DNA of 64,000 nucleotides from Clostridia bacterium (GCA_017399945.1 JAFQAQ010000004.1:199022-263021); one strand, 5' to 3'; counted from the first letter of the stretch, positions 30,272 through 62,929 are shown. Translations and numbers: made by a program. Notes: generated by a model from the sequence alone, not told the origin.

Positions 30272-30286
30272 ATCTTATTTAACTTT

Positions 30287-30814
30287 CTAAGCGCATTTTA
30301 AAATCCGTTCCTGAGGAGCGGATTTTTCTTTTACTACGGTTATTTTCTTTTTGCGTTTTCTATAACGTTCTTTTTCCTTGGTCATTTTAAGTTCTGTAGA
30401 GAAAAGATGAACTTCGTTACATAAATATTCAAACTTTCCTTCGGAATACCCACAACTCTCTAATAACCTAGCAAATCTAGCGACAGCCCTTGCAACTTTT
30501 CTGTAAAAATTACAACCAAAACTTTTTATCAATTGCTCGGATTCATTAGGTTTTTGCTTGGAAAACTTGTAATTAATAATCATTTGATCTTCGGGCGTCA
30601 TCTTATTTATAACAAAATCACATAATAGTTTTAACTTGATAACTAAATCCTTTTTTATGGTTATATCAATTATCCTTTGCGCTAATTCCTCACAAGGTCT
30701 TACGTCCCCGAACGCGCTGAGCGCCTTTCTTTCAGCTAGGTCGTCTAGCACGTTTAATACCATCTCCATCTTGGGATATGCGTATAAAATTGTCTTTGCA
30801 TAAATTGCTTTCAT
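30287..30814 (-). CDS. hypothetical small protein, possibly a sigma-70 region-4/HTH-like regulator
   Basis: The track ORF is trimmed to the second Met (MKAIYAK...), which has an AAAGGAG RBS. The MTPEDQMIINYKF...NFYRKVARAVARFARLL pattern resembles region-4-type regulators. The C-terminus is Lys/Arg-rich. Confidence 0.4.
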   Translation of the reverse strand: MKAIYAKTILYAYPKMEMVLNVLDDLAERKALSAFGDVRPCEELAQRIIDITIKKDLVIKLKLLCDFVINKMTPEDQMIINYKFSKQKPNESEQLIKSFGCNFYRKVARAVARFARLLESCGYSEGKFEYLCNEVHLFSTELKMTKEKERYRKRKKKITVVKEKSAPQERILKCA

Positions 30815-30852
30815 TGGTTCTCCTTTCAACATTTTTTCGTGTGCACATTTAA

Positions 30853-30881
30853 AGTATAAAACGAAAAATCGCCATAGTCAA
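30853..30881 (-). promoter_or_regulatory. putative promoter of the 30287..30814 gene (TTGACT-17-TATACT)
   Basis: On the minus strand, TTGACT is at 30881-30876, the spacer is 17 nt and TATACT is at 30858-30853. Confidence 0.5.
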
Positions 30882-30897
30882 TTGCTATATGTCAGTT

Positions 30898-30931
30898 TTT
30901 GTACAAAATTCTTGATATTTGTACAAAATTC
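30898..30931. promoter_or_regulatory. two direct copies of TTTGTACAAAATTC spaced 20 nt apart (candidate operator/activator sites)
   Basis: Exact 14-mers at 30898-30911 and 30918-30931, each containing the palindrome TGTACA. They lie just upstream of the -35 box of the minus-strand promoter. Confidence 0.4.
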
Positions 30932-30990
30932 CGTCAACCCTGCACTTTTTATCAATTGGCAACCCTAATTTTTAGCGCTTTTTCTTAATA

Positions 30991-31004
30991 CGAACATTTG
31001 TTCG
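30991..31004. promoter_or_regulatory. LexA (Cheo/DinR) box-like palindrome CGAACATTTGTTCG
   Basis: It matches the Firmicutes SOS-box core CGAAC-N4-GTTCG at all 10 fixed positions and lies in the divergent intergenic region. Confidence 0.45.
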
Positions 31005-31141
31005 TACTTCTATTTTTATTGTACTACCCTACGTTGTCAGTTTCTGTCAAGTTTGCGCTTTGACGCACTTTTTTCTTTTTATTTAAATGTATTTATTTTT
31101 ATATAGTGACAAATCTTTTTTTATGTGTTAAAATAGAGGGT

Positions 31142-33619
31142 ATGAGAAAGTTATTTTTTAATGCAAAAGCTTGTTTGCTTTTAGTTTTACCTTTAATATT
31201 AGTTGCTTGCGTAGCCCTTTTTGCTCCGCAATCTTCCACTGCCCTTGCAGACGATTTTGAATATCTAAAAACTCTGCCGCTTACCGATACTGAAGTTTAC
31301 GATTTTAGTTCGTCTTCTCCAAAGGACGCCCTGCATTTTGGTAACGGTTGCGCGCTTATAAAAGACGATAAAACTCTTTGGTTTTCCATTGACGAACAGC
31401 CTTACTTTGAATATCCGCTTTTAGTTCATAAAAACCCTATTCAAATCAAAAGGTTGTCAGACGATATTTTGGTGGTTAACGACGATAATATTTTGTATTT
31501 TGTCGACCTTAACGACCTTACGAAAGCGCCTACCTTGGTTGAGTATCAAAACACTTCCGTTCAAGCTAGTTATTTTGACGTTAACAGCAATTATTTGGTT
31601 ACTTTCTCTGGAAATACCGTTACTAGATATCAATTAAACAACGGAGTTATTCTTGCCGATAGCAAGGTTGAAATTTGGAACTTTGCCGAAGCACAATCCC
31701 CCACTTGCGTTGACCAAGCGGGTAACGTTTTCTTTATAAATTCGGATAGAAGCGTTTGGGTTTATTCAGCCGACCAGTCTTTAACCAACCTTTATACTCG
31801 CACGGATAAAATTACCCATCTTCTTACCGACGGCAAGTTGGTGTTTATGATTGAAGGTGGTTCGGTTAAGAGTTTGGACGTTGCAACCAAAACAGTTACC
31901 GAGTTTACCTTAAACGAAAACCCTGAGTTTGATTTAGGCGTTATCAATAAGCCCGTCAGCATTTCGTTTAACGGAACTAATCTTTTTATTTCCGATTCGG
32001 GCGCGCAAGCAGTTTGCGAATACGCGGTTAACGACACCACCCTTAACTTTACCGGCTTTGCTATCGCAAAAAATAAAACGGCGTTTAACCGAGTGGCTAA
32101 CGACGTTGTTGACCTTGAAAGATTTAACGGTAAACTCGCTATTCTTTCTAGCGATAGGGTGACCGTTATCGATTACGATAATGATTTTAGCCCTTATAAT
32201 AAAGAAGACTTCCTTAATCTTACCAAAACCACCCTGTCGACAGACTTTCCACAAGCTATCGCTATGGGTAACGGAAGAATACTTTTTGCTTACAATAATT
32301 CGGTTAAGTATTACGATTTAGCCACCAACACCATTTCGCAAGCAATTGATTTCGGTACTTCTATCGTTAAGGACGTGTGTTATCAAAGCGGGTATTTTTA
32401 CGTTTTAGTTAATAATACCGTAAACGGCGCTACTTTTACTAGCAGCACGACGCATAAGATTAACGAACAAACATTTACTTCGGTTAAAGCAACTGATTAC
32501 GACGATCCTTACGTTAGTTTTACGGTAGACGTTTTTGGTAACGAGATTTTTTCTTCGGATATATCGGTAGTTAAAATGGCTTCCGACGTTAAAGGACAAG
32601 TTTTTGCTTTTAAGGACGGCGCTTTCTATTTGGTTGATAACGCAACCGGCGATTTCCTTCCCTACTCTACGACAACCGTTCCTTACGGCATAAAAACCTT
32701 TGCAATAGGTTTTGAAAATAGCGTTTTAGATTTCTTTTTTGAAGGTTCGGAGTTTATGTATTCTTCTACCGATATGCCGGTTACTGGTATTAACGGCACG
32801 AAAACGCCAAGCGAGCTTATCACTACCGGCAACCAAGCTAACGGTACTTTAAGGTTCGTTAGACCTTCTGAAAACGCCAACGTATACTCGGTCAATCTCG
32901 TAGACGGGCAATTCGTTTTTGATAAACTAGTTGACAAAGATACTTGTTACGTTTATATTTGCGACGTACCTAGCTTAGCACACAGCGTACTTTTAAGCAG
33001 TAACGGTTTAGTGCTTTGCAGTACTAATATGATAATCGATTACAACAATCCCACGCAAGATAACCTTAACTTACAACTTTACGTAACCACCGACGTTAAC
33101 GCTTATTACTTGCCAGTTATTACCCCAACCGACGATTATATTTTAAGGGATAACGACCTTGCCGTAAGATTAACAAAAGGCGACCAACTGCTTGCTGATA
33201 GTTATTTTGAATTTGGTGGAAGAGGGTTTTATCTAGTTGAATTTGAAAAGAATTCAACCACCTATCAAGCTTTCGTGCCAAAAGGATTTACTACCACGCA
33301 ACTATCCAAAGACTTTATTTACGATACTTACACCCTGCAAACGGTAAGGGCCACCAAGGTTTATTCAGATAAGGGACTTAAAACAGCCGTTTACACCTTG
33401 GTTGACGGTCAGTCGGTAAAAGTTTACGATAAGAACGGAAAGGTTGCTACCATAAGGTATTTCGACGGTCAACAATGGCTTGACGGATATATCAATCAAG
33501 AAGATTTGCAAAACAAACCCAACAAGGCTATTCGTAACACCTTAATCGTTCTTGCAGTTATTGCTTGTGCTTCGGGTACGACAACCTACTTTTTAATGAG
33601 AAAGAAAAAAGAAGATTAG
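31142..33619 (+). CDS. large hypothetical lipoprotein/surface protein with beta-propeller-like repeats, a C-terminal SH3b-like domain and a TM anchor
   Basis: The track ORF is trimmed to the ATG at 31142 (RBS AGAGGG). It has a signal peptide with the lipobox-like LILVAC, repetitive beta-rich sequence and a C-terminal TM segment (IVLAVIACASGTTTYFLMRKKK). Confidence 0.5.
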   Translation: MRKLFFNAKACLLLVLPLILVACVALFAPQSSTALADDFEYLKTLPLTDTEVYDFSSSSPKDALHFGNGCALIKDDKTLWFSIDEQPYFEYPLLVHKNPIQIKRLSDDILVVNDDNILYFVDLNDLTKAPTLVEYQNTSVQASYFDVNSNYLVTFSGNTVTRYQLNNGVILADSKVEIWNFAEAQSPTCVDQAGNVFFINSDRSVWVYSADQSLTNLYTRTDKITHLLTDGKLVFMIEGGSVKSLDVATKTVTEFTLNENPEFDLGVINKPVSISFNGTNLFISDSGAQAVCEYAVNDTTLNFTGFAIAKNKTAFNRVANDVVDLERFNGKLAILSSDRVTVIDYDNDFSPYNKEDFLNLTKTTLSTDFPQAIAMGNGRILFAYNNSVKYYDLATNTISQAIDFGTSIVKDVCYQSGYFYVLVNNTVNGATFTSSTTHKINEQTFTSVKATDYDDPYVSFTVDVFGNEIFSSDISVVKMASDVKGQVFAFKDGAFYLVDNATGDFLPYSTTTVPYGIKTFAIGFENSVLDFFFEGSEFMYSSTDMPVTGINGTKTPSELITTGNQANGTLRFVRPSENANVYSVNLVDGQFVFDKLVDKDTCYVYICDVPSLAHSVLLSSNGLVLCSTNMIIDYNNPTQDNLNLQLYVTTDVNAYYLPVITPTDDYILRDNDLAVRLTKGDQLLADSYFEFGGRGFYLVEFEKNSTTYQAFVPKGFTTTQLSKDFIYDTYTLQTVRATKVYSDKGLKTAVYTLVDGQSVKVYDKNGKVATIRYFDGQQWLDGYINQEDLQNKPNKAIRNTLIVLAVIACASGTTTYFLMRKKKED

Positions 33620-33688: not shown

Positions 33689-34390
33689 TTATTGCTGATA
33701 ACTACTGCCAGAATATTCGTTCCCCATCGTATACGGAAGGGAAAATTCTTGGTCTAAATCAAAGTTTTCGGCATTTTCATACGCTGAAAGTTTACTGATA
33801 GATACTTCGTAAGCAGTCATAGTTTTTATTTCGCTATCGTCTAGGCGTTTTTGGTATTCTCTACTTTGTATTCTGCCGGATATCACTATCTTTTCGCCTA
33901 CTTCTAGGTTTTGGGCAAAACGCGCGTTTCTCCCCCATGCAATACACGGAATATAATCGGATTTGTTATAAGAACGGTTTACTGCAATTAGTATATCGGC
34001 AATCTCTCTATTAAATGGAGTCGTTCTATAAACGGGTGGTTTGCAAACGTAGCCGGAGAGCACTATACAGTTAGGATTTTTTACGGTGGGAGAATCTAAC
34101 AACTCTCTAACGAACACGGTTAGCATGAGTTTGCTCTTTCCGTCCACCATTTTATTGTAGCTTCTAAACTGACCAAAAGCGTTAATTTTTACACCTACTT
34201 TTAGGTCTTTGTCGTTTATCAATCGTTCGGAGACGGTCACGGGTAAAACGTCTCCCTGTCCCGAAAGACGTTTTACTAAAACGTTCATTTCGTAAAAACC
34301 TTCGCCGTATACCTCGTGCGAAAACTCAGCGTCCGTCACTATTTCCCCACTGATAAACACTCTGTTGTTCTTTTCGGTTAAATTGTTCAT
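33689..34390 (-). CDS. single-stranded DNA-binding-like protein with two tandem OB folds
   Basis: The start is moved to the ATG at 34390 (GGAGG 8 nt upstream), because the track start is a TTG inside the RBS. Two SSB-like OB segments (RVFISGEIV... and CIVLSGYVCKPP...) and an acidic FDLDQEF segment near the C-terminus. Confidence 0.55.
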   Translation of the reverse strand: MNNLTEKNNRVFISGEIVTDAEFSHEVYGEGFYEMNVLVKRLSGQGDVLPVTVSERLINDKDLKVGVKINAFGQFRSYNKMVDGKSKLMLTVFVRELLDSPTVKNPNCIVLSGYVCKPPVYRTTPFNREIADILIAVNRSYNKSDYIPCIAWGRNARFAQNLEVGEKIVISGRIQSREYQKRLDDSEIKTMTAYEVSISKLSAYENAENFDLDQEFSLPYTMGNEYSGSSYQQ

Positions 34391-34413
34391 ATATATTTCC
34401 TCCAATGAATTTC

Positions 34414-35178
34414 CTAAGAATTTTTTACTTGGCCACCGTCTGCGCTCATATAAAAGTTATCTTTATATATAAGTTCTCCAATAGTTACGAAGGTATAACC
34501 CTCTTCTTTTAACTCGTCTATGATACTCGGAAGGGCTTGCGCCGTATGTAATCCTTGGTTATGAAATAGCACGATTGAGCCGTTTTTTACCCTTTTTATT
34601 ACCCTTTCTTTTATCTGACTTGAAGATAAATCTTTCCAATCAAGACTGTCTACGTCCCATTGAATTACGTATAGACCAAGTTCCTTTGCAGTAGTTATCA
34701 CTAGGTCGTTATACTCCCCGTACGGTGGACGAAATAACGTGGGTGTTATACCCGTTACCTCGCTTATCGCTTTGCTTGAAGTGGTTAACTCGTTTATAAT
34801 AGATTGCTTGGATAACTTAGACATGTGTGGGTGGGTTGCCGAGTGAGTGCCAATCTCATGCCCGTATTCGCTTATCTTTTTTAGGTATTCGGGATATTTC
34901 TTACTCCAAAATTCTACGGTGAAAAAGGTGCATTTTATTCCCTTTTCTTGCATTACGTCTAGCAGGGTTTGAGTGTAATCTACGCCCCACGCACAATCAA
35001 AGGATATGGCTATCTTCTTTTGGTCGGTTTTTACGTAATAAATTGGCAGTTGTCTATTGGCTTTTGCGTAAAAGGTTGAATAAAGACCACTGCCAGACAT
35101 TATTAAACAACATACTATACCAACCACCGTTATTAAAGCCGTTGGCGTAAGCTGTTTTTTTGTGAAAGTAAAATACAT
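34414..35178 (-). CDS. polysaccharide deacetylase (NodB homology domain)
   Basis: 254 aa. N-terminal TM, FDCAWG, and the TFF...HSATHPHM motifs of the CE4 family. Confidence 0.8.
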   Translation of the reverse strand: MYFTFTKKQLTPTALITVVGIVCCLIMSGSGLYSTFYAKANRQLPIYYVKTDQKKIAISFDCAWGVDYTQTLLDVMQEKGIKCTFFTVEFWSKKYPEYLKKISEYGHEIGTHSATHPHMSKLSKQSIINELTTSSKAISEVTGITPTLFRPPYGEYNDLVITTAKELGLYVIQWDVDSLDWKDLSSSQIKERVIKRVKNGSIVLFHNQGLHTAQALPSIIDELKEEGYTFVTIGELIYKDNFYMSADGGQVKNS

Positions 35179-52068: not shown

Positions 52069-53604
52069 CTATTTGCCACTCTTGGCTTTAATTTTTAATA
52101 GTTCTATAAAAATTTCGGCAGTCGCGTATGCGTCCGACAACGCTCTGTGATGATGAAAGACTATTCCAAAATGCTCTGCTAGGGTGTGTAAATCGTTTTT
52201 TCTTAGTTGTGGAAGGTACTTTCTTGATAGTTCCATAGTATCCATAACTTTGTTTTTGATTTTATAATCTTCTGCACCTGCAAAACGTTTTATGAACTTC
52301 ATATCGAATTCGGCGTTTTGCGCAACTAGCACGCTTCCTTCTATAAACTTCATAAAATCGGGTATTACCGCCTTAATCTTAGGACAATCCTTTACCATAT
52401 CGTAGGTAATTCCGGTTATCTTAACGTTTTCTTCGCTAATCGGGTGTTCTGGGTTAATAAGGGTTGTAAACTGCTCTGCTATCTTGCCGTTTATTATTTT
52501 TACCGCTCCTATTTCGGTTATGCCGTTGCTCATAAGTTCTAGTCCGGTGGTTTCTAGGTCGAAAACCACGTAGTTTTGACTAGTTAACTCGTCCGGAAGT
52601 TCAAAATCGTTGTCGAAAACCGTGCTTACTTTTACAGTTTTTGCCGGCGACGGATATACTAACGAATAGTTTTTGGGGGCGCTCTTTTCAAACCTTGGTT
52701 TTTTTACAAAGTTCTTTGGAAAAAAACAACGATTAATCTTTTCAAAGGTAAAAGAATTTTTGCCGTTATATTCACCGAGAGTTCCCCTTGCGATTATGCA
52801 CTCGCCAACGGGGATATCGCGTATTTTTTGCAAGGTGCTTTTTTTAGAAAAGTATATTCCGCTTAACTTTCCCGTCGTATCGTCTATATGTATTATAAAC
52901 ATTGGCTTGCCGTTTTTGGTGGTCTTTTCGGTAATTTCGGTTACCGTGCCACACACGGTATAGTTTCCGTGTTCGGTTAAATCTTCTATATAAAAGGCTA
53001 TATCGCCCATGTTTTCATCGTCGATTTCTACAACGTCTTCAACTTTTATCGTGCGATATTCTATCTTTTGAAGTTCGCTTTCGTAAACTTCGTCCGACAA
53101 TAAAGATATGGTTTCTTCCACGTGTTTTTCTTCGGTCGAACCTATAAAATCGGCGCAAAAACGATTGCCTAAATATGCGTTTAGTTTTTTTAGCGTTCCG
53201 TTTCTTTGAACGTATTCCACGCCGTCCTTAGTTAATTTTACGTTATATCTCACCACGCCCTCTTCGTACTTACAAGAAAGGTCGGTGGGTTTTAAGTATA
53301 TTGAAACCGACGGATAGTTAGTTGATAAAAAATCGTAAATATCCTTGCATATAATCTCGCTATCGCAAGAAATTTTCTTTACGGTAACCACCACTACCTT
53401 AAAGGCTGGCAAGGTGATTTTTTCTGCGTGCGAAAGGATAAGGTCTTTAACCTCCTCGCTGACCGTTTGATCGCATATAAAACGATAGGTAATCTTTTTG
53501 TTTTCTCGGTCGATTTCTATTTGGTTAAGGCGCATGTTTTTTACCGACGGATGCACTGAGCGAACGTCTGATAAAAATTCCGCGTGGCTTTTTACCGTAA
53601 ACAT
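52069..53604 (-). CDS. PolC-like N-terminal domain plus OB fold plus DEDDh 3'-5' exonuclease, lacking PHP and polymerase domains
   Basis: 511 aa. ExoI YVVFDLETTGL, ExoII LVAQNAEFDMKFI and ExoIII HHHRALSDAYATAEIF align with B. subtilis PolC exonuclease motifs as recalled from memory. An OB-like segment (YTVCGTVTEI...GECIIARGTLGEY) precedes them. Confidence 0.7.
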   Translation of the reverse strand: MFTVKSHAEFLSDVRSVHPSVKNMRLNQIEIDRENKKITYRFICDQTVSEEVKDLILSHAEKITLPAFKVVVVTVKKISCDSEIICKDIYDFLSTNYPSVSIYLKPTDLSCKYEEGVVRYNVKLTKDGVEYVQRNGTLKKLNAYLGNRFCADFIGSTEEKHVEETISLLSDEVYESELQKIEYRTIKVEDVVEIDDENMGDIAFYIEDLTEHGNYTVCGTVTEITEKTTKNGKPMFIIHIDDTTGKLSGIYFSKKSTLQKIRDIPVGECIIARGTLGEYNGKNSFTFEKINRCFFPKNFVKKPRFEKSAPKNYSLVYPSPAKTVKVSTVFDNDFELPDELTSQNYVVFDLETTGLELMSNGITEIGAVKIINGKIAEQFTTLINPEHPISEENVKITGITYDMVKDCPKIKAVIPDFMKFIEGSVLVAQNAEFDMKFIKRFAGAEDYKIKNKVMDTMELSRKYLPQLRKNDLHTLAEHFGIVFHHHRALSDAYATAEIFIELLKIKAKSGK

Positions 53605-54632
53605 TTATCCACCTCTGCAAAAAAGGTTTGTTCTAACTGGTCGTAACTAACCGTTTTTAGTATTTGACCTTTGGAAAAAATTACAACCCCACTCTTTCCA
53701 CCCGCAACGCCAAGGTCGGCGTCTTTGGCTTCGCCCGGTCCGTTTACTACACAGCCCATTACGGCTACTTTTATGGGTTTGGAAAACCTTTGCAAGTATT
53801 CTTCGGTCTTTTTTGCAAAAGACATACAATCCCACTCACATCTTCCACAGGTAGGACATGCAATAAGTTTTGGACAGTCATTTTTAAGGTTTAATGCCGA
53901 GAGTATGCTCTTTGCGGCAATTACTTCGCGTTCGGGATCGGCAGATAGGCTTACCCTTATAGTGTCGCCTATGCCTTTAACTAAAAGCGCGCCTATTCCT
54001 ATTGCGTTTTTTATCACTCCCGAATACTCCGTGCCTGCCTCGGTTACTCCCACGTGTAAGGGATAATCGGTTTTTTTCGCCACGTACTCGTACGCTTTGA
54101 TAGCGAGTGGAACGTCCGATGCTTTTACCGAGATAACCAAGTTATCCACGCCGTATTTTTCCATTATCGCAACTTGTTTTAAGGCGCTTTCGCCTAGCGA
54201 TATCTCGTTCTTGCCGTACTTTTCTAAAAAATCTTTTTCTATACTGCCGGTATTAGAACCAATTCTTACTGGAATTGCTGCGCTTTTTACGGCTAACGCA
54301 ACTTGTTTTACACCTTGTTCGCTACCGATATTCCCCGGGTTTATCCTTATTTTATCAGCGCCACCTTTAATTGATTCTAGCGCTAGTTTATAGTCGAAAT
54401 GTATATCGGCAACCAAAGGCATATCCGTGCCTTTTTTAACCAAGCCAAACGACCTTGCGTCTTCTATATCGGTTACCGAAAAACGCATTATATCACAACC
54501 TATTTGGTTTAGTTTGTTACACTCTGCTATCGCCCTTTCAACCTTCTTTATTTGAAAGGTCGCCATAGATTGTATTGCTATTGGGTTGCCACCACCTATC
54601 GTAAGGTTGCCTATCTTTACTTTTTTGGACAT
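53592..54632 (-). CDS. ispG: 4-hydroxy-3-methylbut-2-en-1-yl diphosphate synthase (flavodoxin)
   Basis: The start is moved to the ATG at 54632 (GAGGAGG RBS). It has a TIM-barrel N-domain and a C-terminal 4Fe-4S motif (CPTCGRC...GCVVNGPGE). Confidence 0.9.
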   Translation of the reverse strand: MSKKVKIGNLTIGGGNPIAIQSMATFQIKKVERAIAECNKLNQIGCDIMRFSVTDIEDARSFGLVKKGTDMPLVADIHFDYKLALESIKGGADKIRINPGNIGSEQGVKQVALAVKSAAIPVRIGSNTGSIEKDFLEKYGKNEISLGESALKQVAIMEKYGVDNLVISVKASDVPLAIKAYEYVAKKTDYPLHVGVTEAGTEYSGVIKNAIGIGALLVKGIGDTIRVSLSADPEREVIAAKSILSALNLKNDCPKLIACPTCGRCEWDCMSFAKKTEEYLQRFSKPIKVAVMGCVVNGPGEAKDADLGVAGGKSGVVIFSKGQILKTVSYDQLEQTFFAEVDKCLR

Positions 54633-54652
54633 ATTACCTCCTCGTCTTATAG

Positions 54653-54681
54653 ATTTTATCACACCATAACGAAATTGTAAA
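54653..54681 (-). promoter_or_regulatory. putative ispG promoter (TTTACA-17-TAAAAT)
   Basis: On the minus strand, TTTACA is at 54681-54676, the spacer is 17 nt and TAAAAT is at 54658-54653. Confidence 0.45.
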
Positions 54682-54737
54682 GTTTATGCGTAAAATAAAA
54701 AGACGCCCGTGTGTACAGACGCCTTTTTGACGGTTTT

Positions 54738-55634
54738 TTACGCACCTGCTCTATTTCTATACATATAAACTATGTTAGCATAGTAATCTTCTAGATAAGT
54801 AGCAAGGTTGCCTTCACCCGTTATATCTTGGTAGGCAAAGGTCGGTTCTAAGGTGTTGTAGTAAGAAGTTACGCAAGCTATAACGTCCTTATAATACCCC
54901 ATTTCCACAAGTTGTTCTTTGGTAAAAGACGTTGCGAAAATTTGCGCGTATTTTATATCTAAATTTGCTTTTACTTGTTCGATAGCGTTTTTGTGTCGTT
55001 GCTCCTTTTCGTCCAAGGAATTGTTATACTTAAATACTTCCATTTCAATGGCTTTTTGCGAGTCCTTAACTTCACCCGTCCGTTTGGTAATTGCGCTTTG
55101 ATAATAAGTGTTATAATACTCGGAAATGTTATCTAAAACGCTCGTATACCCTTCAATTTGCGATTGGGTTTGAGTTATTAATCCGTTGTATTTTGCAGTG
55201 AGTTTATTCTTTTTTGCGTTAATTTTGTCGGTTAGTTCTTGTATTCTATCCGACACCACGACGGAATTTGCCATACCCCTTAGAGTTGCTTGTTCTTGAA
55301 CGTCTTTTAGTGATTGTTCTAGCTGAAAATCAAGGTCTGATAGTTCTGAGGCAAGGTTTTGAGATAACAAGGTTTTTTTAGCCGTTAGTTCTTGTATTTT
55401 TACGTTTACTTCAAAAGTCTTATCGGCTATTTCCTTTTGGTAATCGGTGTATGCAATCGCCCTTGCTCTCTGCGCGATTTCAGCATCGTTTAAGGGCGTG
55501 TGTTGCAACCTTTCAAGCGATATCGTTTGAAAGGCAACGCCTTCGTAATCTACCTTGCGAAGACGATAGTATTTGTATATTTCCACCAATATTTCATACA
55601 TTTCTGCTTTGGTGGTAGGTTGATTAAAAGTCAT
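54738..55634 (-). CDS. hypothetical phage structural protein, coiled-coil-rich
   Basis: 298 aa with a long heptad-like central region (KIQELTAKKTLLSQNLASELSDLDFQLEQSLKDVQEQ...). It is the last gene of the module. Confidence 0.4.
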   Translation of the reverse strand: MTFNQPTTKAEMYEILVEIYKYYRLRKVDYEGVAFQTISLERLQHTPLNDAEIAQRARAIAYTDYQKEIADKTFEVNVKIQELTAKKTLLSQNLASELSDLDFQLEQSLKDVQEQATLRGMANSVVVSDRIQELTDKINAKKNKLTAKYNGLITQTQSQIEGYTSVLDNISEYYNTYYQSAITKRTGEVKDSQKAIEMEVFKYNNSLDEKEQRHKNAIEQVKANLDIKYAQIFATSFTKEQLVEMGYYKDVIACVTSYYNTLEPTFAYQDITGEGNLATYLEDYYANIVYMYRNRAGA

Positions 55635-55638
55635 ATTT

Positions 55639-56883
55639 TTATTCTCCTAATACCTGATATTTTATAATTAAACTGTTCAACGGCAAGCTTTTACATTCGC
55701 CGTAAACGGATACGCTAAGCTTTTTAGTTAATAGACAAGTTTGTTCTGAAAAAGTGTTTTCTACGTTGAAGGCTTTCGAACCGAAATCCCCTAGTAAAGT
55801 TATTCTCACACCGCCTTTGCCCTTGCCGTTGATTGATAGTATTTTAACTAGTTTGCCGTCGGCAACTACCTCTTCTTTTGAAGTGTATGCGCTGTTGCCT
55901 TGTTTGTCTTTACTATTAAATACAACTATCTTGTTAAAATAATCTACGGCAAAATTTTCCCTACTCGCTAATCTTAGTGGCCTAACGTAGAAACGTTCGC
56001 CCGTGCGCACGTTATAACATAAGGTTGCTATTCGTTGGTCCTGCCCCCACATAACGCAAGCTAGATACCAATCCCCACTTTTACTTGCCACCGTTTGCAT
56101 GGTTACTATTTCCACGTCGTCGGGAACTATTCTCGTCTTTGTGATTTTTCCGTCCGAATAAACGCATAAATACTCGTCTTGCAAAAAACAACATTTGTCG
56201 TTAAATCCAACGAAAGAATATTCTTTCGGGGAAATTTCTCCAACTAGTTCTTCTTTTAATATATAGTCGGCGCTAGTGCCTTTTACTATTAAGGTCGCAA
56301 AGCCTTTTTGACAGCAAACTACAAGCTTTTCGTTCACTGCGTTAATCCCTACGACGTCGCCTAAATTTTGGTCTAGTACGATAAAATTTTTGAATTCTAA
56401 CGGCTGATTTTTACTCGTGTAGTCAAGTGGCGCACTAAACAAAAGTCTGTTTTCGTGGGCGGTAAAAAGCACGTCGTTACAAATTACCGTGTTTTCGTAA
56501 AAGGGCATTTTCGCTTGCATGGTTTGTCCACCTAGTACTTGTACGGTAGTTTGATTTGCTATTATGATTTTACTCTCCCCGTCCATTAAAACTTTTAACA
56601 TTACGGGCGTTGTTTCAAACTTAGTGCTACTTGCTCCAATTAAACCGTTTTGAGTTATTTCATACACTTTCTTATCGCTTGCATAACCAAACCTTCTTTG
56701 GTCTACGTAATATAGATTGGTTAAACTTATATTGTTTGGTACCGAGCATATCTCGTAGGAATAATCCCCACCGGATTTTAGCGTATCTCCTTTTGCTATC
56801 GCCCTAGTTTCAGTGCCTAAGTGACTTTCGAAATTATACTTTATATTTTTTATCGACCGACTTTTGGTCTTTGAGTTTTTCAT
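55639..56883 (-). CDS. hypothetical phage structural protein (beta-rich; candidate tail hub or tail-associated protein)
   Basis: 414 aa. It abuts the preceding gene with no gap. No motif was recognised, so the call rests on position alone. Confidence 0.35.
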   Translation of the reverse strand: MKNSKTKSRSIKNIKYNFESHLGTETRAIAKGDTLKSGGDYSYEICSVPNNISLTNLYYVDQRRFGYASDKKVYEITQNGLIGASSTKFETTPVMLKVLMDGESKIIIANQTTVQVLGGQTMQAKMPFYENTVICNDVLFTAHENRLLFSAPLDYTSKNQPLEFKNFIVLDQNLGDVVGINAVNEKLVVCCQKGFATLIVKGTSADYILKEELVGEISPKEYSFVGFNDKCCFLQDEYLCVYSDGKITKTRIVPDDVEIVTMQTVASKSGDWYLACVMWGQDQRIATLCYNVRTGERFYVRPLRLASRENFAVDYFNKIVVFNSKDKQGNSAYTSKEEVVADGKLVKILSINGKGKGGVRITLLGDFGSKAFNVENTFSEQTCLLTKKLSVSVYGECKSLPLNSLIIKYQVLGE

Positions 56884-57453
56884 CTATACCCAACTCCTTT
56901 CCGACATGGTTACGTTGGTAATTTTTAGGCATCGTTTTATTGATTCTATAAACTTTTCGTGCCAAGAAACTGCTCCGTCAAAATCAGCTATCGTTAGCAA
57001 ATATTCGGCAACTACTCCGTATGCAATAGTAACGGGAGTTAGTTTTTGGTTGGAAAAGTTTAAGCTTTGTTCAGTGGTTAGTTTAGTTGGAAGATAGTTA
57101 TAAGTTATGCTATAAACCGGTTCTTTTGTAGAAAAATGGTCTGCAAATTGCTCGTATTCAATGGGTGCGCCACCCACACCTTTTACAGATACGATTTTTA
57201 TGGGAATGGACACCAAACTAGTGTAATAGGTTTTGCCAATCACGTTTCTTCCGCTATCCGTTCTATGCACGGGAAGTTTATCCACGCATAGTTCGCTTAG
57301 TACCAGTTCGGTAACGCCCAAAAGGGTTTTGGTTTGTTCCACGCAATCGCCCGATATAGCCGAAGGATTATCCACGTAATTCACCACGTTGGGTTTGTTT
57401 AGTATGGTTGCCGCCGCCCTTATTATATCTTTTATTTTAATTATTTTGTCCAT
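56884..57453 (-). CDS. hypothetical phage protein (candidate head-completion/adaptor, by position)
   Basis: 189 aa. It is the first gene after the capsid-gene terminator. Confidence 0.35.
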   Translation of the reverse strand: MDKIIKIKDIIRAAATILNKPNVVNYVDNPSAISGDCVEQTKTLLGVTELVLSELCVDKLPVHRTDSGRNVIGKTYYTSLVSIPIKIVSVKGVGGAPIEYEQFADHFSTKEPVYSITYNYLPTKLTTEQSLNFSNQKLTPVTIAYGVVAEYLLTIADFDGAVSWHEKFIESIKRCLKITNVTMSERSWV

Positions 57454-57465
57454 TAATATCTCCTT

Positions 57466-57500
57466 TATAAAAATATGCCGAGTTCAGCTGAACTCGGCAT
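57466..57500 (-). terminator. intrinsic terminator/attenuator directly after the major capsid gene
   Basis: ATGCCGAGTTC-AGCT-GAACTCGGCAT (perfect 11-bp stem, 57475-57500), followed by a U-rich tract on the minus strand. Confidence 0.7.
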
Positions 57501-57511
57501 ATCTAAGTTAG

Positions 57512-58690
57512 TTAGGCTTCTACGATGCCGTTAATCATACCCTGACCGTTAGGACGAGCGCAAATTAAATCTGCATACTTAACCAAGGTTGCCGTGTAAA
57601 CGGGTTTACCCGCAACTTGTTTTAAGATTTTTCCGTCGTCGCCTGCAAGCCATTGCCAATCGCAAAGTTGATGCAAGGTGAAGTCTTCGGTGTTGAGCAT
57701 GTACATAGTTCCCTTAGGACAGAATCTATCGGCTACGATTGGAATTCCGTTGTAGCTCATTGCCTTATAACCGCCTGCAAGTTCCATAACGTCTACGTTA
57801 CGATTGTTTTTGGCAAATAGTTTTTGCAACGCCCTTCTTACGCCCCAAGAACATACGATAAAGTTTACGCCTGCGCCACTGTTTTCTTCAATGGTGTCTA
57901 GGGCTGTTTGCAAGGTGATTTCGTCGATTTCGCCTGCGTTTTCTAATACGTAAGGCTTTAACCAAGCGTTCTTTTCCTTTTCTAGTCCGTAAAGTTTAGT
58001 TACGTTTGGATCAAAGATTGCCTTTAAGCCGGTGATTTCGTTTTCAAAAGAGTTTTGAACGGATATGGTGCAACCTTCGGAAATTTGAGAAGCAGTTACG
58101 CTTGCGCCGGAAATTGCAATTTTGTTGTTTGCTCTATCAACCGAAAGAATACGTCTTGCGCCTACTTCTGCTATTGCGTTTTCAGATGCGTCTCTAAATT
58201 CGATTACCATACCTTCGATAACGTTTTGTACGGTATCTAAACTGATAACGCCGTCTGCTACGCCGGTAACCTTGCCGAGTTTCCCACTGCCGTCACCGAA
58301 AAGCATTCTGCCAAAGTTAAAGGAACTTGATTTAATAAGTCCTTCCATTTCTGCGTTGAGAAGGCTTACGAACGCTCCGCTGTTGTTTTCGGAAGCTCTT
58401 ACTGCCTTGTCGGAAATTTCGATAGTGCCGTAAAGGTTTTTAAGGGTGGTTACGAACTGACCGTAGTTGTTGCCGGTTGCTTTGGGAAGGTCGCCGTCTT
58501 CGGTACCCGCGCCAATACCGCCGTTTAAGCCGTATATAGCAAGTTTTCTTACTTCCTTACCCCATACGTCGTTGGTCGATTGTTTGATTTTTGCAAGTAA
58601 AGGGTTTACTTGGGTGTTGAGTTGTTCGGTTACTACGTCTAAATATAATGATTTTAACGCGTTGTCTGCGTTAGATAAAGTTACTGCCAT
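57512..58690 (-). CDS. phage major capsid protein
   Basis: 392 aa. It follows the scaffold gene, and its size and sequence style (MAVTLSNADNALKSLYLDVVTEQLNTQVNPLLAKI...) are typical of HK97-fold coat proteins of short-tailed phages. The call rests on pattern and position. Confidence 0.65.
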   Translation of the reverse strand: MAVTLSNADNALKSLYLDVVTEQLNTQVNPLLAKIKQSTNDVWGKEVRKLAIYGLNGGIGAGTEDGDLPKATGNNYGQFVTTLKNLYGTIEISDKAVRASENNSGAFVSLLNAEMEGLIKSSSFNFGRMLFGDGSGKLGKVTGVADGVISLDTVQNVIEGMVIEFRDASENAIAEVGARRILSVDRANNKIAISGASVTASQISEGCTISVQNSFENEITGLKAIFDPNVTKLYGLEKEKNAWLKPYVLENAGEIDEITLQTALDTIEENSGAGVNFIVCSWGVRRALQKLFAKNNRNVDVMELAGGYKAMSYNGIPIVADRFCPKGTMYMLNTEDFTLHQLCDWQWLAGDDGKILKQVAGKPVYTATLVKYADLICARPNGQGMINGIVEA

Positions 58691-58713
58691 TTTTTCTCCT
58701 TTTAATTAGCTTT

Positions 58714-59148
58714 TTATTTTAATATTTCTATTGCCAAAGCGCCTGCTTCGGCAATAGTTTTGGGTTTAGACACGGGTGTTTTTAATCCAACCCCGTTATC
58801 GTCTAATAATATTGCCGTTTGTTTGGAAGTTACCACGTTTTTTAGGTAGTCTTTAAGGATTTGCTGTTTTTCCTCTTGGGTTATACCTTGCTCGTTTACT
58901 TCTTTTTCCTCCACGGATTGTACGTTCGGGGCAGTAGTCTTGTCGAACGTCGTCGCCGTGCCCTCCAACTCCTTTATTCGCTGACAGCGTTTGGTAAATT
59001 CAGCTTGCAAAGAGTTGTACGCGTGAATAAGCGCGTTTACGTCTTTAAACTTGCCCAATGAGACTTGTTCTTTCGTAACGCCGTTAGTCTCTTCTGCCTC
59101 CGCAGGTTGCGTTTGAAGTTCAGTTTGTTCATTTTTAAGTTGCTCCAT
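58714..59148 (-). CDS. phage scaffolding protein
   Basis: 144 aa, acidic and helical (EQ-rich), lying between the portal and capsid genes. Confidence 0.55.
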   Translation of the reverse strand: MEQLKNEQTELQTQPAEAEETNGVTKEQVSLGKFKDVNALIHAYNSLQAEFTKRCQRIKELEGTATTFDKTTAPNVQSVEEKEVNEQGITQEEKQQILKDYLKNVVTSKQTAILLDDNGVGLKTPVSKPKTIAEAGALAIEILK

Positions 59149-59170
59149 AATGGTTTATTCTCCCCTTTTT

Positions 59171-61060
59171 TTATATTGCTTTTTGTTGTTGGTTTTGCTT
59201 GCTATATACTTTTTCTTTATGTTCTTTTATATGTTTTGAAAACCTTTGTTTTTGTTGGTCGTTAAGGCTTTGGTATTCTGATAGGACAAACCTTAAATGC
59301 TCGTCTACGTGAATACTATCGTCGTCAAAATCTTCTACCGATAATTCGGTTTGTTTTAGTTTGTCGTTTTCTCTACGCGCTTTTTCTTCTTGTAATTTGG
59401 ATAGTCCTTTTGAATAATCCAAGTCCTTATAACCTAGTAAGGTTAAGATTTTTTCTTTTACCGATGGTCTTACGTTTCCGTTATCGTCGTTAAGTAATCC
59501 ACTTTGGTATAATCTAAAAATCATATCCTTTTTTTGAGCGTGAGTGTAAAGCATTTCGTTTTCACTATCAAGGTATACGTCGTCTGATTCAAGCACGTTT
59601 TTATCGGCGTATAGTATCTTGGTTTTATTGAATTCGTCTTGGTATTTTACAGGTCTTACGCCCGTTAAAAATTGCGAGTATAATCTCACCGTTTGCCTTG
59701 CGATTTCAAGGTAACTTAAACGCACGTTTTCTGCTGAAAAAACCAAGCGTTCGTTGTCTTGCTCTACCATGATTTCTAGGGCTGAACTGCTCCTTATAAC
59801 CGATGCTTCGGAGGTGGTTGACGCGTCCGGCACACCACTTATTATTACGAACTCGTTTATAAGTTTGCTCTCTTCTTCGCTAAATTCGGTGGGCATAGTA
59901 AGTCCGTCCATCATTTCGGGGGCTTTCGCGCCTTGACGGTAAACTAAAACCTTGCCGGGAGATAGTCCTTCTTCAGCAAGGTCGTCTGTATCTAACGAGC
60001 CGTCTTCTACGGTCATTACCCCCATAGAGAGCCTATTTAGAAATTCGTGTTTACGGTTTTTTACTGCGTTAAACGCACGTTGTACGGGAATTAGTCTTTC
60101 TATAACGCTAGTTCCAAAAAAGTTTCCCGCTACGTTCATGCAGTCTTGTTTTACAAAGGGGAAATCCCTACGTTTATCCTTGCCGTTAAGGTATGGCAAT
60201 TCTCCGTAATAAAGTAGTTTGTCTTGACACACGGTTATAAGTCTGCCGTTTGGGAATTCTTGTGACGGGCGTTCGTATCTTTCTATAACGATTGCGCTAT
60301 TATCCACCTTTCCGGTATCCGAATCGTCGGTTACGCCAAGACGTTTTGCCGTGTCTAGATTAAACACGCCTATGCTTTCGCCAACTACGTCTACCCCGTA
60401 TTTTTCCTTTATACGTTTAACGCTTACAGCCCTTGCGTGAATAATACTGTCGCAGTCGGAAAGTTTGTCCGCATATATGCTATCGGGAAAGATTTCAAAG
60501 GGTGATACGGCTATAATTTTAACGTCTCCTTCGTACACTTTTTGTCCGTTTAGTTGGCCAAGGTTGTTTCCTCCTTGATTATCCCACACGATTTTATAAA
60601 ATCCCGTGCCACACGTTTCCGACCATGTGGTTACCTTTTTTACCACGCTTTCTAAATCCGAGCGTTTAAACGCCCCGTCGATAAACTTTTGGGCTAGAAC
60701 AGAATCGTCCATATCCTTATCGCTATCGCTTTTCGGTCTAACGAAAACGGTGGGCGATATTCTGCTAAACTTTGCAAGTCTAGTTTCTATTATAGGCGCA
60801 ATATGGTTGAATACCCTTTTGTTTTGCCAATAAAATCTTTTGTCTTCTTGGGTAATTTCTCCACGAGAATTTACGTCACAATATTGATTGCCCGACAGAA
60901 AGTTTACGTTAAGTTCCCACTGTCTTTCTATTGCTAGTCGTTGGTTTTGTCGCCTTTGGAAATCGGCTGTTACAAAAGCCACTATCTCTTCGCTAAACGC
61001 GTCTTTTTTAACGGTTTTTAGCTTGCGAGTGGGTTTTGAGTTTTTTGTTTCCGTTTGCAA
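59171..61060 (-). CDS. phage portal protein
   Basis: 629 aa, directly after the terminase genes. TTG start with an AAAGGAG RBS 8 nt upstream. Size and position are typical of portal proteins. Confidence 0.7.
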   Translation of the reverse strand: MQTETKNSKPTRKLKTVKKDAFSEEIVAFVTADFQRRQNQRLAIERQWELNVNFLSGNQYCDVNSRGEITQEDKRFYWQNKRVFNHIAPIIETRLAKFSRISPTVFVRPKSDSDKDMDDSVLAQKFIDGAFKRSDLESVVKKVTTWSETCGTGFYKIVWDNQGGNNLGQLNGQKVYEGDVKIIAVSPFEIFPDSIYADKLSDCDSIIHARAVSVKRIKEKYGVDVVGESIGVFNLDTAKRLGVTDDSDTGKVDNSAIVIERYERPSQEFPNGRLITVCQDKLLYYGELPYLNGKDKRRDFPFVKQDCMNVAGNFFGTSVIERLIPVQRAFNAVKNRKHEFLNRLSMGVMTVEDGSLDTDDLAEEGLSPGKVLVYRQGAKAPEMMDGLTMPTEFSEEESKLINEFVIISGVPDASTTSEASVIRSSSALEIMVEQDNERLVFSAENVRLSYLEIARQTVRLYSQFLTGVRPVKYQDEFNKTKILYADKNVLESDDVYLDSENEMLYTHAQKKDMIFRLYQSGLLNDDNGNVRPSVKEKILTLLGYKDLDYSKGLSKLQEEKARRENDKLKQTELSVEDFDDDSIHVDEHLRFVLSEYQSLNDQQKQRFSKHIKEHKEKVYSKQNQQQKAI

Positions 61061-61368
61061 TTTTTGTTCTCCTTTTCAGTTTGACTTTGACCAAGCAGTT
61101 CAAGTAGCCGTTGTTTTTCTTGTTCTAATTGTTCGTCACTCATTTGTGATATTGGCGTTTGTTCTTGTTCTAACAAGATTTTTAAGGCCGTTATGTCGGG
61201 TGGGACGTTCTTTTTGGTTACTTTTCTTTTGGTTAACGTTACTTCGCCTTCTTGTGTTTGCGAGTATTCTTCTACCACTTCGGTTGCGTCGTACCCGAGC
61301 GCCTTTTTCTTTAACGCGTCTAAGTAATCCGTTTGGTCTATTTGCTTTTTTCTAGTTTTTTCGTTCAT
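61018..61368 (-). CDS. small terminase-like / DNA-packaging accessory protein
   Basis: 116 aa. The LKKKALGYDATEVVEEY...KKNVPPDITALKILLE pattern resembles small terminase subunits. It overlaps the terL 3' end by 17 nt and the portal 5' end by 43 nt. Confidence 0.45.
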   Translation of the reverse strand: MNEKTRKKQIDQTDYLDALKKKALGYDATEVVEEYSQTQEGEVTLTKRKVTKKNVPPDITALKILLEQEQTPISQMSDEQLEQEKQRLLELLGQSQTEKENKNCKRKQKTQNPLAS

Positions 61369-62794
61369 TAAGTATTTTCCTAAAAAGCCGTTCCTTATCC
61401 TTTTGAATTTCCGTCTTTTGAGGTTTTAGTGGAGTTAGGCAAGGCTTTTTCATTATGTAATATCTAAGTTCGTCTAGCGAGTGGTCGTCTACCTTTTTCG
61501 GGTTATCGCCCTCCTGCCACCAATAGCTTTTAAGTTCTCTTATCAAGTTGACGCAGTTTTTAAAGATATATATTCTAGGCTTTCCGTCTTTAACTTTTAA
61601 GTATTGTTTAACCCGTTGTATGCCTGCGAACATATCTTTATTTACGTTTGGGTTTGCGATTATTCCGTTATCGTAAAATAGTTCGGTTACGCTTTTACTG
61701 CTTGCTAACGTTCTTTGGTTTGCAGCCGAGTCTATAAGCGCTTTATATCTCCCCTTGCCGTCTTTTTTCCAGCCTAGCGATTGGCTTATTTGTTTTATTT
61801 TCTCCGCATGATAGGCAACGTCCTTTCCAGCCTGAAAGTGCTCTGCAACTACGTAAATAGTTCCGTCGTAGTCAACTGCGTACCAATGGGCTGAAAGTGG
61901 GTTGTTAAGCCCCGGGTCGATTGAAATTTCGTCCTGCCACTCGGGTGGCACTGAAAACGGCTCGATAACGTGCACGTTCTCGTCAAACTCCGGATATACT
62001 AGCCCTGCGTTTGCCTTAAACCTGCCGTATCTTCTGCTTTCCAAAACGTCTTCTGATAAACTATCGTTTAGTAAATCTACTTCTTCGGGATTAAGATAGG
62101 GGTTGTCCGCCCATTCCATAAACTCGTACCACACTTGTGGATTGTTGTTCTTGTTTAGATAGATTTCTTCGTAGATAAAGGTTAAACCTTTAAGCGGAGT
62201 CATAGTGCCGAACAAGTCACCTTGTCTGTCTAACACTCTCATTCGGCACTCTTCGTAAACGTCACGAGGGGGTTCTTCGTCAAACCACACGAAATCTAGT
62301 GAACTACCTTGAAACTTTTCTCTACCTTGGTCGCACGACTTAAAGCCGATTATCGACGTTCCACCAAAAACGTTTTTTATGCGTATTTGGTCGATTACAC
62401 CATATTTTAGGCTATCTTTTTTGCCCGATAACATGGTTACGTCCTCTATCCAAGAGGGGTTTAGATAGTGCAAAATCTTTTGTTGGGCAACGTCCCTTTG
62501 CACTTGTTGAGAAAGGGACACAACCCATCCGAAAACGTTGTCCTTGTTTTCTCTGTACGGGTGTATCCCTCTCGCTAAGTACACGGCTTCTACCGCGCCA
62601 CATTCAGTTTTTCCGCTCCTGTTTCCACCGAACACCCACCTGTTCTTTTTGGGGCATTTGTGGAAAGCCAGTTGTTTTTGGTGAACTTTTTCACCTGTAT
62701 TATAAATGGAAAGATAGTTATTTTTTTTACGATTTATTTGTTCTCGTTCGATTTGCAGTATGCGTTCTAAAATCTGTTTCATCGCTTCCCTCAC
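61352..62794 (-). CDS. phage terminase large subunit
   Basis: 480 aa. Walker A GGNRSGKTE, Walker B LDFVWFDEE, and C-terminal RNaseH-like nuclease motifs (ISIDPG, DDHSLDELRY). Confidence 0.85.
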   Translation of the reverse strand: MREAMKQILERILQIEREQINRKKNNYLSIYNTGEKVHQKQLAFHKCPKKNRWVFGGNRSGKTECGAVEAVYLARGIHPYRENKDNVFGWVVSLSQQVQRDVAQQKILHYLNPSWIEDVTMLSGKKDSLKYGVIDQIRIKNVFGGTSIIGFKSCDQGREKFQGSSLDFVWFDEEPPRDVYEECRMRVLDRQGDLFGTMTPLKGLTFIYEEIYLNKNNNPQVWYEFMEWADNPYLNPEEVDLLNDSLSEDVLESRRYGRFKANAGLVYPEFDENVHVIEPFSVPPEWQDEISIDPGLNNPLSAHWYAVDYDGTIYVVAEHFQAGKDVAYHAEKIKQISQSLGWKKDGKGRYKALIDSAANQRTLASSKSVTELFYDNGIIANPNVNKDMFAGIQRVKQYLKVKDGKPRIYIFKNCVNLIRELKSYWWQEGDNPKKVDDHSLDELRYYIMKKPCLTPLKPQKTEIQKDKERLFRKILNERKN

Positions 62795-62798
62795 TTAT

Positions 62799-62826
62799 AC
62801 TATAACACGGATTTTTTCAAAAGCAA
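62799..62826 (-). promoter_or_regulatory. putative promoter of the phage-like module (TTGCTT-16-TGtTATAGT extended -10)
   Basis: On the minus strand, TTGCTT is at 62826-62821, TGT at 62807-62805 and TATAGT at 62804-62799. The leader to the GAGGGAAG RBS and the terL ATG is very short. Confidence 0.4.
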
Positions 62827-62929
62827 TATCTATTAGTCACTTACCGTTCACGATTTTTAAAAATTTTTTTAGGTCAATATTTTAACGAAAAAGTTTCGTA
62901 AAGTTTTATAAAATAAAATCAAAGTTTAC

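Follow-up and report, generated by a model that had tools for sequence, protein, structure and literature searches.

The closest described counterparts of the locus treated here, an eight-gene operon of phage-derived head and packaging genes (hereafter the module) in a 64,000-nucleotide stretch of DNA from a Clostridia bacterium (GCA_017399945.1, JAFQAQ010000004.1:199022-263021; the window), are gene transfer agents (GTAs), among them the FpGTA of Faecalibacterium. Borodovich et al. (Nat Commun 2026; PMC12946183) studied intact capsid-packaged stool DNA by nanopore sequencing of faecal virus-like particles, and found GTA-like packaging mainly in Ruminococcaceae and Oscillospiraceae and also in Christensenellaceae. 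For Christensenellaceae the packaged DNA consisted of evenly spread chromosomal fragments, with a peak at 4.07 kb for HGM11616 and at 6.3 kb for QANA01; a gene cluster was identified for Faecalibacterium only, leaving the Christensenellaceae packaging with no assigned cluster (PMC12946183). FpGTA I (RCH50844-RCH50853; CP030777 2536737-2546346) comprises 10 open reading frames (ORFs) in 10.5 kb, including a TerS that lacks a DNA-binding domain, TerL, portal, a Prp-annotated protein and a major capsid protein (MCP) of the 'N4-gp56 family'; the product of its last gene, RCH50844, is annotated 'TolA' and is the third most abundant protein in purified particles (PMC12946183). A second FpGTA locus, 125 kb away, encodes fibre, receptor-binding protein, holin and endolysin, and the particles, analyzed also by proteomics, measure ~40 nm and carry ~9 kb of DNA (PMC12946183).

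Another comparable system is RcGTA. Like the module, it is a vertically inherited, order-wide, phage-derived structural cluster under purifying selection, without integration or replication genes, whose TerS has no DNA-binding function and whose head and packaging genes lead the operon; its auxiliary loci lie elsewhere, and its capsid capacity of ~4 kb is below the size of the cluster (in part from the introduction of PMC12946183).

We conclude that the module is very probably a functional, vertically inherited particle operon owned by its bacterial host. With less assurance, we favour its description as a domesticated, podovirus-derived head, packaging and connector operon, a candidate GTA ('viriform') of uncultured gut Christensenellales. 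A first-pass annotation, made from the sequence of the window, had proposed either a domesticated, GTA-like system or a tail-stealing satellite; the former holds up at the level of the genome, in view of vertical synteny, intact ORFs, purifying selection and the lack of any remaining prophage.

The whole window was read, and eight co-oriented minus-strand ORFs, all intact, were found where that annotation had put them (54738-62794, 8.06 kb; Table 1). In operon order these are TerL, a TerS-like gene (g2), portal, scaffold, MCP, g6, g7 and g8, with junction spacings of -17, -43, 22, 23, 58, 0 and 4 nt. TerL is matched by PF03237 (4.6e-12), PF17289 and phrog_2 (2e-30), and its translation contains the Walker A (GGNRSGKT), Walker B (FVWFDEE) and nuclease aspartate motifs that had been reported as intact. 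The gene is thus confirmed, but its start, first placed at GTG 62794, is most likely the ATG used in public gene calls, which has a GAGGGA ribosome-binding site; an exact look-up of the 480-aa form gave no match because those calls use the shorter, 476-aa form. Within the g2 family, 30 of the 31 members match phrog_309 (terminase small subunit, best 3.6e-8), in agreement with the initial TerS-like label, and 23 match phrog_23444 (likewise terminase small subunit). The g2 of the window aligns to profile positions 200-243 of 319 only, that is, to the middle to C-terminal part, which makes it look like a TerS of ~100 aa without the usual DNA-binding N-terminus.

The portal call, TTG start included, is upheld by the PHROG match in Table 1; there is also a hit to PF23899 SU10_portal at 19.2 bits, under the cutoff of 30, and a weak P22_portal match on a public call. 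Two contigs from the same species as the window (L093 2027-3915 and L095 2597-4484) have a portal ORF split in two. Each differs from the window by a single 1-2 base indel with zero mismatches, so the splits are likely assembly errors, not pseudogenes; alternatively, they may be rare frameshifted 'non-producer' variants. The 144-aa protein in the scaffold position has no family match and no protease match in PHROGs or Pfam, and its gene is full length in 72 of 75 loci. The MCP is recognized by NCBIfam NF033394 capsid_maj_Podo at 274 bits (cutoff 80; 1.5e-81), the sole match in an NCBIfam scan at E<=1e-3, as well as by phrog_14242 (1e-58) and, marginally, by PF17236 SU10_MCP (24.4 bits, cutoff 24.1). 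By these profile matches, membership of the SU10 / 'capsid_maj_Podo' podovirus head lineage is solid for the MCP and suggestive for the portal. PDB profile searches with g2, portal and MCP gave nothing significant.

The genes after the MCP had initially been described just as three further structural ORFs. All three are present at the expected lengths, but they are not featureless. For g6, 4 of 33 family members match phrog_2377 'head-tail adaptor Ad1' (best 1e-3) and 1 of 33 matches phrog_442 'head-tail adaptor', while the family profile has a weak PDB match to 'Tail tubular protein A' (9k09_d, E 0.34); the window g6 protein itself has no match. The g7 family matches phrog_3287 'virion structural protein' (10 of 33 members, 5.7e-11) and phrog_511 'internal virion protein' (6 of 33, 5e-8), its PDB matches are weak, beta-propeller-like and none significant, a database search returned relatives from the same species only, and a single-sequence AF2 model was unusable (pLDDT 35). 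The g8 protein has a variable coiled coil between conserved N- and C-terminal ends; its AF2 single-sequence model is a generic helical hairpin with long helices at residues 50-223 (pLDDT 80-98). Its best Foldseek match is an uncharacterised podovirus protein (E 4e-4), followed by weak matches to 'internal virion / DNA transfer protein' and to T7 ejected-state chains, which we treat as leads only, and by non-specific coiled coils in PDB. PDB profile searches with g6, g7 and g8 gave nothing significant, and a concatenated g6-g7-g8 profile search found no relatives, its candidate list probably having been filled by coiled-coil low-complexity words. With an adaptor-like g6 and virion-type matches for g7 and g8, the operon probably encodes more than a bare head, namely a portal-closing adaptor and two virion proteins; g7 could be a nozzle, hub or internal protein, and g7 and g8 together could form a minimal nozzle, plug or ejection device. 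The earlier statement that integrase, lysis and tape-measure genes are lacking stands, but the further statement that there are no tail or ejection genes was too strong in light of the g6 and g7 matches.

Table 1. Features of the module and its boundaries in the window, with mean pairwise protein identity among the 25 species having all 13 genes (8 module and 5 host genes)
Feature	Coordinates	Strand	Description	Mean pairwise identity
TerL	61352..62782	-	476 aa, ATG at 62782; ORF also open at GTG 62794	0.75
g2	61018..61368	-	Short TerS-like, 116 aa; overlaps TerL 3' end and portal 5' end	0.56
Portal	59171..61060	-	629 aa, TTG start; phrog_156 9.8e-33	0.59
Scaffold (probable)	58714..59148	-	144 aa; position between portal and MCP; helical, charged composition	0.54
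MCP	57512..58690	-	392 aa, HK97-fold podovirus type; NF033394, PF17236, phrog_14242	0.68
g6	56884..57453	-	189 aa, probable head-tail adaptor; family-level PHROG matches	0.35
g7	55639..56883	-	414 aa, fast-evolving beta-rich virion structural protein; family-level PHROG matches	0.21
g8	54738..55634	-	298 aa, DUF7934 coiled-coil protein; PF25588 DUF7934 1.3e-17	0.37
Operon promoter region	62799..62840	-	Read directly from sequence	
Terminator-like hairpin MCP/g6	57467..57502	-	15-bp perfect stem, 4-nt loop, T-run	
Boundary with host operon	54663..54737	-	Hairpin and T-run right after g8 stop, then ispG promoter-like site	
nusA (host)				0.77
ispG (host)				0.72
infB (host)				0.72
rimP (host)				0.69
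Exonuclease (host)				0.62

The module is widespread in one bacterial group. The MCP has 6177 database relatives, the best 120 of which are all at least 68% identical, many of them on contigs of 50-460 kb from Clostridia or Clostridiales metagenome-assembled genomes (MAGs). Among GTDB species genomes (one genome per species), 435 have an MCP relative; the best 80 of these are without exception gut MAGs, human or animal, of Christensenellaceae or Clostridia, and at least 80 species genomes of Christensenellales contain the block. Among the 2.9 million viral contigs of IMG/VR, only 20 short ones match. In a library clustered at 50%, MCP family identity grades continuously from 58% down to 29% over 2934 clusters, which argues that the ancestral phage lineage is large.

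Synteny was assessed for the best 80 of the 435 loci by tblastn and all-against-all clustering, with 54 loci having enough flank. The canonical eight-gene order was found in 39 of the 54 under strict clustering, and most of the other 15 were resolved by tblastn, or traced to crude ORF picking or a divergent g8 member. In 44 of the 54, ispG directly follows g8 (the ispG-rimP-nusA-infB side). The upstream neighbour differs by lineage and is always a host gene: MATE, thyA-folA, a gyrB/gyrA-like gene or an envelope-protein block. With the eight-gene block kept while the upstream neighbour varies, the module behaves as a unit amid rearrangement of the surrounding chromosome. Relatives in dozens of species thus carry the module at the same locus, as the first-pass annotation anticipated for a domesticated element, and no known complete phage is nearly identical to it, the nearest deposited phages having MCPs of 24-28% identity.

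Module and host genes diverge in step. Distances for TerL, portal and MCP track those for ispG, exonuclease, nusA and infB (Mantel r 0.83, with 0 of 2000 permutations as high), with a mean module/host distance ratio of 1.11. The ORFs are full length in 93-100% of related loci. In species pairs with unsaturated dS, dN/dS is 0.03-0.05 for TerL, 0.03-0.09 for portal, 0.07-0.19 for MCP, 0.04-0.11 for g2, 0.2-0.4 for scaffold and 0.07-0.34 for g6-g8, against 0.01-0.14 for host genes; a single g6 value of 1.04, from the closest pair and based on few substitutions, lies outside these ranges. A strain of the same species at 98.7% nucleotide identity gave pN/pS of 0-0.28 over all eight genes. These ratios indicate strong purifying selection on TerL, portal and MCP, while g6-g8 change at three to five times the rate of the head genes. 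Orthologues are therefore intact, with dN/dS well below 1 apart from the single g6 pair, and the earlier view that this is not a decaying remnant is borne out by the intact ORFs of related loci together with the purifying selection.

A further regularity concerns synonymous sites: the dS of MCP and scaffold (57512-59148) is consistently below that of TerL, portal and g6-g8 in the same species pairs (for example 0.54 and 0.25 for MCP and scaffold, vs 0.89-0.93), and is similar to that of nusA and infB. Such a pattern hints that codon usage is selected for high expression, which has been reported for alphaproteobacterial GTA genes.

The surroundings are those of a chromosome. Downstream of g8, in the same orientation, come ispG, a DnaQ-type exonuclease fusion, rimP, nusA, ylxR and infB, and upstream of TerL is a divergent MATE transporter, beyond which a same-species contig has metA, a Cys/Met PLP enzyme and a POR subunit. 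Host genes thus extend from the module over 54 kb in one direction and 4.9 kb in the opposite one, those of the remaining ~54 kb of the window including sugar metabolism, tRNA synthetase, EF-P, fumarase and similar genes, which supports the original report that no prophage remainder is nearby. Integrase, repressor, replication, lysis and fibre genes were found neither in the module nor in the rest of the 64-kb window. The module has the same G+C as its flanks; no direct repeats bracketing it were found when the flanks were checked, nor an att repeat or nearby tRNA, the sole tRNA of the window being 45 kb away. The distance to ispG had been given as 75 nt; the host gene does directly adjoin, but public gene calls start ispG 30 nt further in (346 aa), putting the gap to g8 at ~105 nt. 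On this side (52069-54662), ispG shares 13 nt with the gene for a 511-aa protein in which an OB-fold (tRNA_anti-codon) domain is fused to a DnaQ/RNase_T 3'-5' exonuclease; the ispG/exonuclease-fusion pair is kept downstream of the module, and its own terminator-like hairpin often follows the pair (23 of 42 loci).

Transcription signals were found by reading the sequence and comparing loci; a generic promoter/terminator scan of the region did no better than on shuffles and did not list the TerL promoter site. The promoter of the window, read 5' to 3' on the minus strand, has an upstream element GTGACTAA (62840-62833), a -35 TTGCTT (62826-62821), a 16-nt spacer and an extended -10 TGtTATAGT (62807-62799). 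The upstream element is a degenerate copy of a motif, TGTCA[TG][AT], that 22 of 59 loci carry 58-69 nt ahead of the TerL start, against 2.5 expected (mean of shuffles). The motif is just upstream of a TTGACA-like -35, with which it forms a TGTCA-N9-TGACA-like dyad (related loci L009-L088). Being found whatever the upstream neighbour, it belongs to the module, and it may be an operator or activator site. Nothing above chance was seen for further copies of this promoter-proximal motif in the window. Loci with the F15 gene (see below) upstream have a different, also conserved, leader (ATTATAC ... AAAAAAGGnAAAnTTGT).

The attenuator that had been noted after the MCP gene is there, but with a stem of 15 bp rather than 11 bp and stronger than first described (dG -23.8 kcal/mol, z -5.3; equally stable in 0 of 200 shuffles). 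Such a hairpin with a T-rich tail follows MCP in 29 of 77 related loci (median stem 12 bp), and a terminator-like hairpin follows g8 in 29 of 59 (median stem 13 bp); the remaining internal junctions have one in 0-5 loci only. By analogy, a terminator after MCP would be the classic phage layout, giving much capsid protein and little distal protein, and the hairpin after g8 marks that gene as the operon end. The ispG promoter-like site that comes next is TTTACA-17-TAAAAT (54681-54653).

FpGTA resembles the module in several respects. It too is an integrase-less chromosomal operon of a gut Clostridia lineage, near-ubiquitous in its host genus, with a TerS lacking an obvious DNA-binding domain, TerL, portal, a scaffold-region protein, MCP and hypothetical proteins homologous to short-tailed phage proteins, and its lysis and fibre genes lie outside the head operon. 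RCH50844 and g8 are possibly analogous terminal-gene products: judged by its annotation, RCH50844 may be low in complexity or helical, which would recall the coiled coil of g8. The differences are as clear. FpGTA I has 10 ORFs in 10.5 kb vs eight in 8.06 kb; its MCP (RCH50849.1) is of the 'N4-gp56 family', whereas that of the module matches NF033394 / SU10_MCP only; FpGTA has a gene for a Prp-type cysteine protease between its portal and MCP genes, and the module has none; TerS precedes TerL in FpGTA, whereas the TerS-like gene follows TerL in the module; the hosts are Oscillospirales and Christensenellales, respectively; and FpGTA has experimentally observed particles, whereas the module is known here from genes alone. 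Given the different MCP model, the missing Prp and the different terminase order, we treat the module as analogous to FpGTA and probably independently domesticated, set apart by annotations and gene order. Novelty had been claimed for the configuration. In the library of papers searched no other description of this module was found, but the claim is partly overtaken by PMC12946183, in which the analogous integrase-less podovirus-like operon of Faecalibacterium and GTA-like packaging by Christensenellaceae are both reported.

Unlike the module, RcGTA is siphovirus-like, with ~15-17 genes that include prohead protease, tail tube, tape measure, distal tail and hub, and it belongs to another capsid lineage and another bacterial phylum. 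Searched against PHROGs and Pfam, neither the eight proteins nor the members of their families match prohead protease, major tail, tape measure or distal tail; an RcGTA-type cluster was rejected because the module has no protease, tail tube or tape measure.

Capsid-forming phage-inducible chromosomal islands (cf-PICIs) have an integrase, regulators, a replication module and attachment (att) sites, are mobile between strains and use helper-phage tails. Their compact head and packaging set (TerS, TerL, portal, MCP, connectors), without tail genes, resembles the module; unlike them, the module has no int, rep or att and is strictly vertically inherited, co-diverging with host genes, and on those grounds a cf-PICI or other phage satellite was rejected; the tail-stealing alternative of the first-pass annotation is not supported. 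The nearest deposited phage genomes are those of Jasminevirus and related actinobacterial phages. They share the order terminase, small ORF(s), portal, scaffold-position gene and MCP, and the 24-28% identity of their MCPs to that of the module extends over the full length; unlike the module, they are complete genomes of 45-47 kb with lysin, minor tail proteins and replication genes.

Three architectural variants were seen among the relatives. Variant A, the window type, has the eight genes. Variant B (L038, L057, L061, L075-L080) has one more gene, which separates g7 from the DUF7934 gene, and does not adjoin ispG. Variant C (L101-L109, IMG/VR contigs; e.g. L102 11222-17361, L103 9482-16419) has 12-13 genes and MCPs 53-58% identical; its extras are a ~130-aa gene after MCP, two large proteins after g7 (796 aa and 683 aa, with a weak Beta_propel match) and a conserved 85-aa protein, and L102 also has a two-transmembrane Phage_holin_1-like protein. 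Since the variant C extras have no homologue in the window or the 80 genome loci, the eight-gene form looks like the most reduced member of a series, and variant C may show what it has lost or moved elsewhere. A correspondence of the g8 family to the large downstream proteins of variant C was considered and rejected, as these are not homologous.

Another block recurs near the module: F15 (29516-30271, plus strand), F16 (30287-30832, minus) and F17 (31106-33619, plus), which are fast-evolving, without Pfam domains, and are followed by an SSB-like gene (33689-34405) and a polysaccharide deacetylase gene (34414-35178). In the window (29516-33619) the block is ~29-33 kb from TerL, whereas in 19 of 48 related loci, and also in variant C contigs, it is the immediate divergent upstream neighbour of TerL. 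F15 and F17 contain SH3-like parts and have a signal peptide and a C-terminal membrane anchor, and a few F16 members match models of Sigma70 region 4 or ECF (best 1.5e-6). The block may thus comprise a regulator dedicated to the module (F16) and its partners in the envelope (F15/F17), or else be linked to it by synteny alone.

We propose that the module would work as follows. Its own promoter would drive TerL, the short TerS, portal, scaffold and MCP, with the partial terminator after MCP lowering expression of g6, g7 and g8. Scaffold and MCP would build a small procapsid on the portal, and TerL, with a TerS that has no recognisable DNA-binding part, would fill it by the headful with whatever chromosomal DNA is available. 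The portal would then be sealed by the g6 to g8 proteins, which would make up a minimal device for connection or delivery. Proteins for lysis, and any for receptor binding, would be encoded at other places in the genome, as they are for other multi-locus GTAs.

Two general features of a GTA are seen at this locus: phage-derived chromosomal particle genes without integration, excision or replication genes, inherited vertically and kept under purifying selection. On balance we prefer the full GTA-like reading, in which small capsids package host DNA by a non-specific headful mechanism and are released by unlinked lysis genes. Several points count against it. The module is known from its genes, from which we infer particle formation, cargo, non-specific packaging, small capacity, delivery to recipients and the roles of g7 and g8; for those two proteins in particular, the roles may be as proposed, on weak or family-level matches and single-sequence models. 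Holin, endolysin, tail fibre and receptor-binding genes are absent from the cluster, from the 64-kb window and from the 10-kb flanks of the 80 related loci. The host genes used in the Mantel test adjoin the module, so the correlation shows co-inheritance with that region and not with the whole-genome tree. The module is a probable but still putative source of the packaging seen for HGM11616 and QANA01; if the link holds, the published fragments of 4-6 kb, being smaller than the 8.06-kb operon, would make self-transfer impossible, a GTA hallmark.

A domesticated particle could serve some end other than transfer, such as extracellular DNA release, PBSX-like killing, or interference with phages by titrating or mis-packaging their DNA. 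The purifying selection on TerL and head genes shows that there is a function and not which one, and PBSX-type particles package host DNA yet kill (PMC12946183). We nevertheless consider this unlikely: the module has no tail sheath, tube or tailocin-like killing device, no known defence family is found among the eight proteins, and a short TerS without a DNA-binding part fits non-specific packaging of host DNA. A defence system as such was rejected, no PADLOC defence family being matched by any of the eight; satellite-type matches were also nil.

That the capsids are instead completed by the tails of a co-resident or infecting helper phage, making the module a fixed, integrase-less analogue of a cf-PICI, is quite improbable. 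Such a lifestyle would suit an operon with no tail fibre, receptor-binding or lysis genes in or near it, and the three- to fivefold faster evolution of g6-g8 could match changing helper tails. However, the lack of an integrase, primase/replicase, att site or excision signal, and of PADLOC or satellite-type matches, speaks against a satellite, as does strictly vertical, syntenic inheritance over deep divergence, unlike that of horizontally moving satellites. Moreover, the MCP and portal families are of short-tailed phage type, and short-tailed phage heads do not dock a pre-assembled long tail.

That the module is a decaying prophage remnant, or part of an ordinary prophage with its other modules outside the window, can be practically dismissed. 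In favour of this reading are the unmistakable phage origin of the genes, the relatives found on a few IMG/VR 'viral' contigs, and the extra downstream genes of distant relatives (MCP 53-58%), including one for a holin-like protein. Against it, host genes of 54 kb and 4.9 kb lie on the two sides, the composition is that of the host, the nearest deposited phages do not exceed 28% capsid identity, and dozens of species keep the same eight genes at one position, their ORFs intact and their dN/dS far below 1.

Returning to the GTA reading, its parts can be joined into a single account, which we offer tentatively and think rather doubtful as a whole: that the module is an ancient, order-wide, eight-gene Christensenellales GTA, of an SU10-type podovirus origin independent of the alphaproteobacterial GTAs and of FpGTA; that it is the missing source of the random 4-6 kb capsid DNA of Christensenellaceae in the human gut; that the hypervariable g6-g8 set species-level recipient specificity; and that F16, a small sigma-like protein encoded directly upstream in many lineages, is its dedicated regulator.

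Christensenellales are prevalent, heritable and health-associated gut bacteria; they are difficult to grow in the laboratory, and genetic tools for them are lacking. If the GTA reading is true, a DNA-packaging particle owned by the host would be a major route of gene flow within the order, bacterial DNA in gut viromes would be explained, and the module would represent a third independently evolved GTA lineage, Gram-positive and podovirus-like, with the smallest known head operon. There would be a defined locus at which to test directly the published GTA-like packaging of Christensenellaceae. Loci of this kind lead prophage and virome predictors astray, the 20 'viral' contigs of IMG/VR being this element. 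With housekeeping-like head genes alongside hypervariable distal genes, the module would offer a natural system in which to study how target specificity is kept or altered in domesticated virus particles.

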